Positions 33,213 through 37,098 of a stretch of 64,000 nucleotides of DNA are shown here, piece by piece. The stretch is from NCBI RefSeq assembly GCF_055900595.2, contig NZ_CM148325.1, one strand, 5' to 3'. Positions within the stretch are counted from its first letter, which is position 1. Each line of letters opens with the position of its first letter. The position numbers were made by a program, and so were the translations under genes. The notes beneath the pieces were generated by a model that worked only from the letters and a program-made list of their open reading frames with translations, ran no database searches and was not told where the DNA came from.

Positions 33213-33878
33213 TTAACTCGCCTGCAAAGCGTTGATTTCGGATTTATCTGCCAGTCTTTTCAACAGCATATTGAGTAATACGCCATACATTGGCAGGAAG
33301 AAAACGATACTGATTAACACTTTGAAACAGTAATCGACCAGCGCGATTTCCATCCAGTGTTCAGCCATAAAGGCATCTGGGCTGCGCCAGAAGGCAATGA
33401 AGAAGAAGGCCAGCGTGTCGCTGACGTTACCAAACAGGGTGGAAGCCGTCGGTGCCAGCCACCAGCGACGACTCTGACGCAGGCGGTTAAAAACGTGCAC
33501 GTCGAGGATTTGCCCCAGCGCGTAGGCCATGAAACTGGCGGTGGCGATACGGGCGACAAACAGGTTGAAGTGGGCGAGCGCGCCGAATCCCTGCCAGGAA
33601 CCCATATAGAACAGCGACGAGATGACGTAGGAGATCAGTAACGCCGGGATCATCACCGCAAAGATGATACGACGGGCCAGCGGTGCGCCAAAAATACGCA
33701 CAGTCAGGTCGGTAGCAAGGAAAATAAACGGAAAGCTAAACGCGCCCCAGGTGGTATGGAAACCAAAAATGGATACGGGAAGCTGAACCAGATAGTTACT
33801 GGAGGTGATCACCAACAGATGAAATAACGATAACCAGAACAACGCCTTATAGCGTTGAGTTTGCGAGAAAACGTTCAT
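33213..33878 (-). CDS. yhhQ: queuosine precursor transporter YhhQ
   Basis: 221 aa polytopic membrane protein; synteny. Confidence 0.85.
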   Translation of the reverse strand: MNVFSQTQRYKALFWLSLFHLLVITSSNYLVQLPVSIFGFHTTWGAFSFPFIFLATDLTVRIFGAPLARRIIFAVMIPALLISYVISSLFYMGSWQGFGALAHFNLFVARIATASFMAYALGQILDVHVFNRLRQSRRWWLAPTASTLFGNVSDTLAFFFIAFWRSPDAFMAEHWMEIALVDYCFKVLISIVFFLPMYGVLLNMLLKRLADKSEINALQAS

Positions 33879-34098
33879 ATTGTACCTTTTTGATTAACCA
33901 TTGGGGTGAGGGAACCCAATACGTACGACACGTCTGTTACCTTAACATAATAACGTGCTGACCCTTTTTTCGAGCCGCCGCATGATACTGCTTTACGTTG
34001 ACAATGCAATGGTTAATTTTCACGCAATCGTTAACCTGGTTTGCTTACGGACTCACAGGGCGTAAACTAGCGCCGTTTTTTTATGTGATGAGAAGAAA

Positions 34099-34344
34099 AT
34101 GACCGATCTCTTTTCCAGCCCTGACCACACACTCGACGCACTTGGCCTGCGCTGCCCGGAACCAGTAATGATGGTGCGCAAAACTGTGCGCAATATGCAG
34201 CCAGGTGAAACGTTGCTGATTATTGCTGACGATCCGGCGACGACACGCGATATTCCTGGGTTTTGTACCTTTATGGAACACGAACTGGTTGCGAAAGAGA
34301 CCGATGGACTGCCTTATCGTTATTTGATTCGCAAATCGGGGTAA
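34099..34344 (+). CDS. tusA: sulfur carrier protein TusA
   Basis: 81 aa; CPxP active-site motif (LRCPEPVM). Confidence 0.9.
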
Positions 34345-34398
34345 GGTGGATCAGGCTAGCGGACCGATCGCGCTCAATTTTGCGGCTTGCAACCGGTT

Positions 34399-34535
34399 TG
34401 TAGGACGGATAAAACGTTCAAGCTGCATCTGGCGATACGGTGCGCAAGGCCTGATGCGACGCTGTCGCGTCTTATCATGCCTACGAGTTCGATGCCCTGT
34501 GTAGGCCAGGTAAGGCGTTTACGCCGCATCCGGCA
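34399..34535. repeat. REP/BIME cluster
   Basis: Imperfect palindromic GCCTGATGCGACGCTG...CGCGTC and GTAGGCC...GCCGCATCCGGCA units typical of E. coli REP elements. Confidence 0.75.
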
Positions 34536-34558
34536 CGCAAACGTAATGGAATGCACAA

Positions 34559-34867
34559 ATGGATTATTTAATTCCAGTTTGTCTGGCATTGCTGGGATTG
34601 CTCGCGATCTTCACCCCCAATTGGCTGATCCCTGTTTTTATCGTCGTGGGGGGATGGCTGGGGGTACTTGCCTGGGGTTGGCTCTGGCTAATGATTTTTT
34701 TACCTTTACTTAACGGTGTCGGGCTTGCTTATGCCCTGTGGTTGATGTTCAAAAGGCCATCCATAGCATCCCGCCTGGTTGCTGCATGCTGTGTTATCTC
34801 CGTCATTCTGATGTTAGCGCTTTATTATGCTTTCCTGACTATGCCGCCGTTCCCGGCCCAGCACTAA
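34559..34867 (+). CDS. hypothetical small Trp-rich membrane protein (102 aa)
   Basis: ATG start with GGAA 8 nt upstream; three hydrophobic segments; convergent with zntA. No homology evidence available. Confidence 0.35.
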   Translation: MDYLIPVCLALLGLLAIFTPNWLIPVFIVVGGWLGVLAWGWLWLMIFLPLLNGVGLAYALWLMFKRPSIASRLVAACCVISVILMLALYYAFLTMPPFPAQH

Positions 34868-34899
34868 GCCTGATAGCCAGAGGCTATCAGGCAACACTT

Positions 34900-37098
34900 T
34901 TACTTCCTGCGCAACAATCTTAACGCATTCGCCGTCACCAGCACCGTCGCACCCGTATCTGCCAGCACCGCCAGCCAAAGGCCAGTCATTCCTAACAGCG
35001 TTGTGACGAGGAAGATCCCTTTCAGCCCCAGCGCAATGGTGATGTTCTGGCGGATATTGGCGTGAGTGGCGCGTGCCAGTTCAATCATCTGCGCCAGGCC
35101 GCGCAGGTGGTTATGGGTTAATGCTGCGTCGGCGGTTTCCAGCGCCACGTCTGTGCCACTGCCCATTGCAATCCCTATGGCGGCAGCTTTCATGGCGGGC
35201 GCGTCGTTAATACCGTCGCCGACCATCGCCAGCGGCGCATGTTGATTCAGCTCGGTCACCGCTTTGACTTTATCTTCCGGCAACAGGCCCGCTTTAAACT
35301 CCAGCCCCAACTCCCCGGCAATTGCCGCCGCTGCGCGTGGATTATCGCCAGTGAGGATCACCCCTTTGACACCCAGGGCGCTCAGTTCGCTGATGGCAGT
35401 TGCGGCGTCGGCGCGCAGGGTATCCTGCAATGCAATTACGCCAAGCACGTCATCGTTACGCACCACCAGTACTACCGTTTGCCCGGCGCTTTCCAGTTCG
35501 TTAATTAAACCAGCAAATGCAACAGCCGGATGTTTTCCGGCAGCGCATATCAACACGCGCTCGCCGTTAATCAGTGCTTCAATACCAGACCCGACCAGCG
35601 CCCGCTGTGATTCGGCGGCGGGAATGGCGAGTTCAGCAACCTGTGCTTCGCGTACGATGGCTTGCGCCAATGGATGCGTCGCGCCTTGCTCGACCGCCGC
35701 TGCCAGTGTCAGCAGTTCAGATTCACTAATACCCGTTGCCGGATGAATCGCGGTAACGCGCGGTTTACCGACGGTCAGCGTACCGGTTTTATCAAACGCC
35801 ACCTGGGTAACACGACCTAGTTGTTCCAGCGCCGCACCGCCTTTAATCAACGCCCCACGACGCGCTGCTGCTGCCAGCCCGGAGGTGATCGCCGCAGGTG
35901 TTGAGATCACCAGCGCACACGGGCAGCCAATCAGCAGCAGCGTCAGCCCTTTATAAATCCACTCCTGCCAGCTTGCGGCAAACAGCAGCGGCGGCACCAG
36001 CGTCACCAGCAGGGCGACGGCCATAATCGCTGGCGTGTAAATACGGCTGAAACGGTCGATAAACCGCTCAATCGGTGCGCGGCGCTCTTCAGCTTCTTCG
36101 ATCAGTTTCAGAATCCGGTCAATGGCGCTGGCACCCGGTTCTGACAGCACTTCCAGCGTTACCAGACGGTCTACGCTGGTGGCGCCTGCAGGAACTTTAT
36201 CACCCGTCGCGCGTTCCACCGGAATGGATTCGCCGGTCAGGGCGCTTTCATCAAAACTGGCAAACGGTGAGAGCAGTTTACCGTCGGCAGGTAAACGCCC
36301 ACCCGCTGCGACTTCAATCACATCGCCCGGACGCAGGCTGTTAATTGCTACCTCTTCACGCTTGCCATTACGCAGGCGCGTGGCGGTTTCCGGTTTCAGC
36401 GCCATTAACGCGCTGACCCCTTGACGCGCGCGGCTGGCGGCCCAGCCTTCCAGTCGTTCACCAATCAAAAATAGCAGCAACACCATCGCAGCTTCGGCGG
36501 TTGCGCCAATAAACAGCGCGCCAATGGCGGCTACGCTCATTAACGTTTCAATGGCGAAGTAGCTGCCCGATTTGATCAGCCGTAATGCCTGGCGCACAAT
36601 CGGGTACAGCCCAACCAGCGTGGTCGCGATAAACGCCAGTTGCCCGAACGGATGATTAAACTGCTCCAGACCCCAGCTGATTGCCATCAACACGATTAGC
36701 GTAATCAGCGGCAGATTCTCTTTCAGGCGTGATTCTTGTTGTTCGTCGGCGGACTGTTCATCGCGCAGGGAATAGCCCGCTTTTTGCACCGCAGATTCAA
36801 CTTGTGCACGGATGTCATTGTCGGCATCAACCACCAGTTTTTCGGTGGCGAACAGCACCTGCACCTGATTCACGCCTGCAAGCTGGCGCACGGCATTTTC
36901 TACCTTGCGCGCGCAGGCGGCGCAGTCCATGCCGCTGACTTTCCAGCTATAGCGGGTGCCGGAGACGTTTTCAGAGAGCGTTGGCGTGCTGGAACATGCG
37001 CCGTCGCAGCAACAGTCGTTGGCGTTCTGTGCCGTGGTTAGCGGTTTGAACGCAGCAAAGTGAGGGGCTTTCTTGCCGTTATTGTCAGGAGTCGACAT
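34900..37098 (-). CDS. zntA: Zn/Cd/Pb-exporting P1B-type ATPase ZntA
   Basis: 732 aa; N-terminal GMDCAAC metal-binding motif, CPC transmembrane motif, DKTGT phosphorylation site. Confidence 0.95.
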   Translation of the reverse strand: MSTPDNNGKKAPHFAAFKPLTTAQNANDCCCDGACSSTPTLSENVSGTRYSWKVSGMDCAACARKVENAVRQLAGVNQVQVLFATEKLVVDADNDIRAQVESAVQKAGYSLRDEQSADEQQESRLKENLPLITLIVLMAISWGLEQFNHPFGQLAFIATTLVGLYPIVRQALRLIKSGSYFAIETLMSVAAIGALFIGATAEAAMVLLLFLIGERLEGWAASRARQGVSALMALKPETATRLRNGKREEVAINSLRPGDVIEVAAGGRLPADGKLLSPFASFDESALTGESIPVERATGDKVPAGATSVDRLVTLEVLSEPGASAIDRILKLIEEAEERRAPIERFIDRFSRIYTPAIMAVALLVTLVPPLLFAASWQEWIYKGLTLLLIGCPCALVISTPAAITSGLAAAARRGALIKGGAALEQLGRVTQVAFDKTGTLTVGKPRVTAIHPATGISESELLTLAAAVEQGATHPLAQAIVREAQVAELAIPAAESQRALVGSGIEALINGERVLICAAGKHPAVAFAGLINELESAGQTVVLVVRNDDVLGVIALQDTLRADAATAISELSALGVKGVILTGDNPRAAAAIAGELGLEFKAGLLPEDKVKAVTELNQHAPLAMVGDGINDAPAMKAAAIGIAMGSGTDVALETADAALTHNHLRGLAQMIELARATHANIRQNITIALGLKGIFLVTTLLGMTGLWLAVLADTGATVLVTANALRLLRRK

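Follow-up and report, generated by a model that had tools for sequence, protein, structure and literature searches.

A predicted small membrane protein gene linked to tusA in Escherichia and its absence from most E. coli genomes

An open reading frame (ORF) of 102 codons lies between tusA and zntA in the DNA analyzed here, a 64,000-nt stretch of Escherichia coli DNA referred to as the window. Its conservation and substitution pattern point to a real, vertically inherited protein-coding gene that is dispensable. The whole explanation that we prefer, with a probability of roughly 0.7, is that the ORF is a genuine tusA-linked membrane-protein gene, the distal copy of a paralogue pair, which would be transcribed by read-through from tusA, is dispensable, and has mostly been deleted in E. 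coli. The ORF is already catalogued as a hypothetical protein; the tusA-linked family is previously undescribed.

Layout and Annotation of the tusA–zntA Region

The features of the region are listed in Table 1. The spacer between tusA and the ORF was 214 bp long and contained three REP units. The ATG-initiated, Trp-rich ORF was present as given in a preliminary description of this DNA; the gap between its stop and the convergent zntA stop was 32 bp, not 33 bp as stated there. A terminator-like hairpin (GGCGTAAACTAGCGCC followed by T7) was observed at 34059-34074 (+) of the window, 25 nt upstream of the tusA start in the divergent yhhQ–tusA spacer. It may represent a leader, an attenuator, or the end of an unannotated transcript.

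Table 1. Features of the tusA–zntA region in window coordinates.
Feature	Position	Strand	Evidence
tusA (sulfurtransferase TusA)	34099..34344	+	ORF list; RefSeq annotation of a 99.8%-identical locus
REP unit 1, degenerate (GTAGGACGGATAAAACGTTCAAGCTGCATCTGGC)	34400..34433	-	Direct-repeat family D1, 74% identical to unit 3; inside the sub-threshold Rfam naRNA4 match 34403-34481
REP unit 2, canonical (GCCTGATGCGACG...CTTATCATGCCTAC)	34449..34484	+	Exact REP core; inverted-repeat pairs I1 and I4 with unit 3
REP unit 3, canonical, inverted	34501..34534	-	Exact core GCCGGATGCGGCG; Rfam naRNA4 match 34504-34538
Conserved GGAATG, RBS-like, 5 nt before the ATG	34548..34553	+	(A)AGGAA(T/G)G before the start in all Escherichia alleles, the 84-aa paralogue and distant homologues
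ORF, 102 aa, ATG start	34559..34867	+	ORF list; RefSeq 'hypothetical protein'; intact orthologues; selection tests; homologues and paralogue
Putative internal tandem duplication	34559..34672	+	Codons 1-19 (MDYLIPVCLALLGLLAIFT) vs codons 20-38 (PNWLIPVFIVVGGWLGVLA)
G6 run	34648..34653	+	Within the stretch where E. marmotae-type frameshifted alleles regain frame; exact position unmapped
T7 run	34695..34701	+	Site of the commonest frameshifted alleles
Hairpin, perfect 11-bp stem and 3-nt loop, between the convergent ORF and zntA stops	34868..34892	.	Inverted repeat I3, 100% complementary
zntA (Zn/Cd/Pb P-type ATPase), convergent neighbour of the ORF	34900..37098	-	ORF list; RefSeq annotation

The preliminary description had called the ORF unannotated, which is incorrect: RefSeq labels it 'hypothetical protein' (WP_032303952.1 in the 99.8%-identical locus), and UniProt lists the exact protein as uncharacterized (A0A2K3TTP7, A0A2K3TTP7_ECOLX). 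The alleles found at the tusA–zntA locus in databases were WP_032303952.1, WP_000385056.1 and WP_000385059.1. These entries represent the ORF protein or alleles of it from this position, but they give no family, function or evolutionary context, and in the literature library searched, queries by accession and by gene pair yielded no mention of the ORF.

Coding Status and Selection

Antisense ORFs of 100-160 aa occur inside zntA, so the length of the ORF alone is no proof of a gene; the proof is conservation. In a scan of one genome per species, the ORF was intact at 102 codons in E. albertii, E. whittamii, Escherichia sp. E1V33, Escherichia sp. MOD1-EC7003 and one further Escherichia species representative, and protein searches added E. 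marmotae and other named Escherichia strains. The window had the gene order yhhQ–tusA–ORF–zntA, as did two further E. coli alleles and five representatives of other Escherichia species.

The selection tests used eight alleles and species representatives, all of 102 codons. There were 21, 15, and 36 variable sites at the first, second, and third codon positions, respectively. The mean Nei-Gojobori dN/dS was 0.37. Relative to the consensus, 35 synonymous and 44 non-synonymous changes were counted on 75 and 231 sites, respectively (binomial P = 1e-4). For the same genome pairs, dN and dS were 0.016 and 0.37 in tusA and about 0.01-0.03 and 0.3-0.5 at the 3' end of zntA, where L007 and L009 were left out because their 733-aa alleles were out of register. 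The dN/dS of tusA and zntA was about 0.04-0.07, compared with 0.37-0.55 for the ORF, which indicates that the ORF protein evolves several times faster than its neighbours, yet clearly not neutrally. The substitutions show weak purifying selection. Between Escherichia lineages, the ORF had a mean dS of 0.18, about half of the values for tusA (0.37) and zntA (0.3-0.5) in these pairs; the segment may have recombined between lineages, its synonymous sites may be constrained, or the estimate may be noisy, with only 75 such sites.

The frame was preserved in diverged relatives together with a synonymous excess, the combination expected of a genuine gene. A chance ORF, one of the options raised in the preliminary description, was rejected on the intact frame in other Escherichia species, the synonymous excess, the distant homologues, the paralogue after tusA, and the conserved RBS-like motif. 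The same evidence, with intact copies in at least five other Escherichia species representatives, supports the option of a real small membrane protein. Conservation with synonymous bias across relatives had been proposed as the check, and it came out positive (dN/dS 0.37, P = 1e-4, homologues in other genera).

Frameshifts in relatives, which had been named as a refutation, formally do occur as rare homopolymer-slip alleles, but these are heavily outnumbered by intact ones. At the T7 run, T6 instead of T7 led to a product of 61 aa (P0034, P0032-36, P0044) and T5 to a product of 50 aa (P0043). In P0023, P0025 and P0026, the reading passed from the +1 frame to the ORF frame between ORF residues 24 and 33. 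The commonest frameshifted allele was found on ~12 contigs, versus several hundred to more than 1,000 contigs per intact allele. Such alleles indicate a dispensable gene, not non-coding DNA.

Predicted Structure of the ORF Product

Of the 102 residues of the protein, 22 were Leu, 8 Pro and 6 Trp, and no more than four were charged (3 basic, 1 acidic). The GRAVY was 1.48, and the product is predicted to be a small polytopic inner-membrane protein. Its basic residues, K65, R66 and R72, were grouped in one loop. The AlphaFold model was all-helical (pLDDT 76.6, pTM 0.40), with helices at residues 4-18, 24-65 and 69-94. The middle helix spans 42 residues and has a Pro/Asn/Gly break halfway. Four hydrophobic segments are therefore more likely than the three of the preliminary description.

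Scans of the ORF and its distant relatives against Pfam, NCBIfam, PADLOC and PHROGs returned nothing above threshold, and a PDB sequence profile search gave no match, so that it belonged to no curated family and corresponded to no solved structure. A weak match at residues 45-91 was obtained with the MnhF/PhaF subunit of monovalent cation/H+ antiporters (NCBIfam NF009243), a membrane protein of ~90 aa with three helices (E = 0.007). Membership was rejected, since the match scored 17 bits against a cut-off of 95 bits and no other mnh genes were nearby. Type I toxins are usually shorter than 60 aa, with a single helix and an overlapping antisense RNA. The ORF product has 102 aa and three to four helices, and a type I toxin or small toxic membrane peptide was likewise rejected; no Rfam antisense or toxin families were found in 33800-35000.

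In the alignment of the tusA-linked family described below, no Cys, His, Asp or Glu was conserved, so an enzymatic or metal-binding role is unlikely. The role of the ORF product is most likely that of a non-enzymatic accessory or modulatory membrane subunit. KdpF, MgtS, AcrZ and MgrB, small inner-membrane proteins with a modulatory effect on larger membrane machines, resemble it; the ORF product is likewise small, very hydrophobic and without catalytic residues, and its gene lies beside that of a transporter. However, these proteins are 29-50 aa long with one helix, compared with 102 aa and three to four helices, and there is no sequence similarity.

A Proposed tusA-Linked Family of Small Membrane Proteins

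An exhaustive HMMER search with an Escherichia-only profile identified the distant relatives P0039 (83 aa, ending in FPAQH like the ORF) and P0042 (84 aa), the latter from Huaxiibacter chinensis (Enterobacteriaceae). Hits to relatives had E values of 1e-5 to 1e-3 with this profile and of 1e-23 or lower with mixed profiles. A third relative, P0045, clustered with proteins of Huaxiibacter and Lelliottia sp. WAP21. Overall, the distant relatives were 83-86 aa long, shared 31-40% identity with the ORF protein, and came from other enterics including Huaxiibacter. The genes encoding P0039, P0042 and P0045 followed tusA on its own strand after a gap of 35-37 nt that contained no REP. These short forms aligned to ORF residues 20-102 and were without the N-terminal segment. 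Eight residues were invariant in all family forms (window numbering): P25, W33, G55, L56, R72, S81, M85 and L88. The window ORF belongs with these genes by its position directly after tusA, its strand, and its similarity to P0042, P0039 and P0093. From these alignments and gene neighbourhoods, we propose a narrow, previously undescribed family of small membrane proteins in the Enterobacteriaceae, whose genes always follow tusA immediately and in the same orientation.

In one Escherichia lineage, a second small membrane-protein gene of 84 aa was located between tusA and the 102-aa ORF (L008 2575-2828; L020 3001-3255). It was intact in L020-L023 and broken in the species representative L008 by a T8 run instead of T9; after rebuilding with T9, the L008 gene was 100% identical to an existing 84-aa protein, P0093. 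The contigs of P0093 had the order tusA, 27 nt, 84-aa gene, 172 nt with one REP, 102-aa gene, zntA. The 84-aa copy matched the window ORF in tblastn with E = 3.7e-9. Given this order and similarity, the window ORF corresponds to the copy farther from tusA in a pair of tandem paralogues. The window showed no trace of the proximal 84-aa copy.

Codons 1-19 and 20-38 of the ORF were identical at 31 of 57 nt, and this ranked among the top 0.2% of in-frame self-comparisons. The extra N-terminal helix of the 102-aa form apparently arose from this internal 57-nt duplication. The first two residues are Met-Lys or Met-Arg in the short forms and Met-Asp in the long form. By the positive-inside rule, these starts and the basic loop K65/R66/R72 would fit an N-terminus inside for the three-helix form and an N-terminus outside for the four-helix form.

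In the scenario we favour, the basic family form would be a protein of 83-86 aa with three hydrophobic helices, encoded 27-37 nt after tusA. The 102-aa form would have arisen as a tandem paralogue and acquired a fourth helix at its N-terminus. In the window lineage, the proximal copy is gone, and three REP units lie in the spacer between tusA and the ORF.

The surroundings of the small ORF differed among genera and species. An extra gene of 162-165 aa, convergent with the ORF, was located between the small ORF and zntA in L007 (3369-3866, -), L009 (3378-3872, -) and L011 (688-1176, -). Its carriers were E. albertii, Escherichia sp. MOD1-EC7003 and the P0039-carrying enteric, and it was absent from the window. 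A Pfam scan of this neighbour gave no family, though its NCBI name is 'DUF2004 domain-containing protein'. In Huaxiibacter-type genomes, a three-gene TRAP transporter (DctP, DctQ, DctM) was located between the small ORF and zntA (L012 4423-7221; L016 4410-7208). Superficieibacter (L017), checked as a possible source of P0039, had no small ORF after tusA; there, tusA was followed by a gene for a GntR-aminotransferase regulator. Across Enterobacteriaceae, the region downstream of tusA is thus a variable spot.

REP Units and Expression Signals

The preliminary description had suggested two or three REP units after tusA. Three are present, two with exact cores and one degenerate, in the orientations -, +, and -, all extragenic between tusA and the ORF. 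In a core motif search, the units corresponded to imperfect palindromes of ~35 bp with the core GCC(G/T)GATGCG(G/A)CG, and the exact cores were located at 34449-34461 (+; GCCTGATGCGACG) and 34522-34534 (-; GCCGGATGCGGCG). REP identity was verified by the core only, as a fuller 37-nt REP consensus had no match at up to 3 mismatches. Units 1-3 together form a BIME-like cluster. The segment 34445-34535 matched ~20,000 places in 5,211 E. coli genomes, which identifies the stretch as a dispersed repeat, and the REP units at this locus are ordinary.

The stretch also matched Rfam naRNA4/REP325 below threshold, with 50 bits against a gathering score of 59.5. The naRNA4 family is derived from REP325 (PMC4550694). 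Compared with the REP/BIME elements of E. coli such as REP325, the source of naRNA4 (Rfam RF02564), the window units share the three imperfect ~35-bp palindromes, the canonical core, the alternating orientation and the extragenic position between tandem genes. They differ in falling below the gathering threshold (50 vs 59.5 bits) and in having one degenerate unit. Where REPs lie between tandem genes, they have been shown to terminate transcription partially, in part through Rho, and to stabilise the mRNA upstream (bioRxiv 10.64898/2026.03.23.713779); by analogy, the window units would be expected to do likewise.

A plausible ribosome-binding site had been noted before the ORF. The RBS-like GGAATG is indeed there and its motif is conserved across the family, although in Escherichia it matches the Shine-Dalgarno sequence only weakly (GGA). 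A scan of 33850-35000 gave no sigma-70-like promoter, but it was insensitive enough to miss the tusA promoter as well. In the short forms, the gap after tusA is too small to hold a promoter or terminator, and these genes are therefore probably co-transcribed with tusA. The REP cluster of the window stops 24 nt short of the ORF ATG, so transcription of the ORF most likely still comes from tusA. Because REPs are partial terminators and stabilise upstream mRNA, expression of the ORF is predicted to be low relative to tusA.

The hairpin between the ORF and zntA stops had an RNA fold of -20.6 kcal/mol (z = -5.2) and was kept in the window, L002, L004, L006, L008 and L010, with variation in the loop only. 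An intrinsic-terminator scan did not class it as a terminator, the T-run being weak. It is probably a shared transcript-end structure of both convergent genes. In the proposed expression model, the ORF would be transcribed by read-through from tusA; the REPs would partly terminate this read-through and stabilise the tusA mRNA, giving low ORF expression; and the transcript would end at the hairpin common to the ORF and zntA.

Distribution in E. coli and Spacer Haplotypes

Contigs with the exact ORF protein numbered 427, and those with a sister allele at least 1,000. ORF DNA was present in 317 of 5,426 complete E. coli genomes (5.8%), in single copy and always on the chromosome. In all of 60 evenly sampled ORF-carrying genomes, the match lay under a 'hypothetical protein' feature; its span was exactly 309 bp in 59 of them and 318 bp (+9 bp, in frame) in one.

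The ORF was absent from K-12, in line with the preliminary description, which had no named K-12 gene here. The tusA–zntA spacer of K-12 (L003 846-946) was 101 bp long and had no REPs, no ORF, and no hairpin. In the JA0072/S88-type ORF-less haplotype, the REPs were kept and the ORF was gone. In an evenly spaced E. coli sample, ~6% of genomes carried the ORF, about a tenth were REP-only, and the rest were K-12-like. The K-12, JA0072 and ECNB21 alleles had a ~50-bp palindromic element (CCCTCACCCTAACCCTCTCCCCAGAGGGGCGAGGGG) just after tusA that was missing from the window, which makes the tusA–zntA spacer a mosaic of different repeat insertions.

The ORF is best read as ancestral to the genus Escherichia, and about 94% of E. 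coli genomes, K-12 among them, have lost it through at least two different deletions. The suggestion of strain-specific DNA in the preliminary description holds to the extent that the ORF is accessory in E. coli, absent from K-12 and present in 317 of 5,426 genomes; the evidence points, however, to an ancestral gene lost by deletion and not to an inserted or mobile one. The ORF segment did not have the features of a mobile or acquired island. The GC content was 49.8% in the ORF and 52.9% in the window, and a phage search gave no copies of the ORF. The sole 'plasmid' hit was PLSDB NZ_CP141089.1, of 4.9 Mb, which carries the ORF and the zntA neighbourhood. NZ_CP141089.1 is also in the complete-genome collection as strain KE47 and is evidently a chromosome filed as a plasmid.

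The 3-kb flanks on both sides in the window were only ~96% identical to nearly all E. coli, and only 8 genomes reached at least 99%. The window strain thus belongs to a divergent E. coli lineage, and the divergence around the locus does not reflect local import.

Discussion

A decaying relic, once a gene or never one, that is functionless in the window lineage and open only for lack of time would account for the deletion in about 94% of E. coli genomes, the repeated occurrence of frameshifted alleles at the T7 run and close to the G6 run, the high dN/dS, the weak Shine-Dalgarno match, and the REPs that separate the ORF from tusA. We consider this unlikely, as exactly 102 codons stayed open across lineages whose tusA and zntA have a synonymous divergence of 0.3-0.5, the synonymous excess is significant, the divergence of the ORF is well below the neutral level of its flanks, and intact alleles far outnumber broken ones. 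The dS of the ORF, lower than that of the flanks, could reflect homologous recombination between Escherichia lineages, and together with the presence of the ORF in only 5.8% of complete E. coli genomes it might suggest that the segment is strain-specific DNA, inserted or horizontally acquired. Such an origin is extremely unlikely given the unchanged position and gene order in several Escherichia species representatives, the homologues after tusA in other genera, the native base composition, and the finding of one copy per genome, with no phage or plasmid copies and no mobility genes. Immunity proteins against pore-forming colicins and microcins have a similar size and a layout of 3-4 transmembrane helices. 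By analogy, the ORF could encode an orphan immunity-type protein against pore-forming bacteriocins or microcins of competitors, kept or lost by exposure; the patchy presence and absence, the tandem paralogues, the protein evolution faster than that of the neighbours, and the variable neighbourhood, including the DUF2004 gene in E. albertii, would fit. The likeness is one of size class, helix number and patchy distribution, whereas the ORF has no cognate toxin gene nearby, no Pfam match to colicin or microcin immunity proteins even at E <= 5 and no PADLOC hit. Its core-genome position by a housekeeping gene is stable across genera, with no mobile-element association, so that we regard an immunity function as very unlikely.

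TusA serves in the sulfur relay for tRNA thiolation and molybdenum cofactor, and KdpF and MgtS are small-protein regulators of other P-type ATPases. The ORF product could accordingly be a dedicated partner of a neighbour, either a tether or modulator of TusA or a small-protein regulator of the P-type ATPase ZntA. In every case the gene comes immediately after tusA in the same orientation, at 27-37 nt in the basic form, and in Escherichia it is convergent with zntA and has a hairpin in common with it. However, descent alone among closely related genera can explain the linkage, tusA and zntA function in K-12 and Superficieibacter without the ORF, the TRAP transporter separates the small ORF from zntA in Huaxiibacter, and the family has no conserved Cys, His, Asp or Glu; a dedicated partnership is therefore distinctly unlikely. 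A broader proposal is that tusA-linked small membrane proteins are a new functional family acting with TusA or a neighbouring transporter, for example as an anchor or gate coupling the TusA sulfur relay to the inner membrane. The second paralogue would then have flipped its N-terminus from inside to outside by duplicating the first transmembrane helix, and most E. coli would have lost the system afterwards. We offer this as speculation of low probability. We continue to prefer a genuine, dispensable gene of the tusA-linked family that was lost from most E. coli.

The ORF has no bearing on a long-standing open question and presents nothing mechanistically surprising. If expressed, it would add one more uncharacterized small membrane protein to Escherichia, one that is invisible to work on K-12 since K-12 has deleted the gene. 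It would also be a compact case of gene birth and decay, in which a gene was duplicated in tandem, gained a helix by duplicating part of itself, had its operon spacer invaded by REPs, and was lost repeatedly. That it always follows tusA would then provide a concrete, testable hypothesis.
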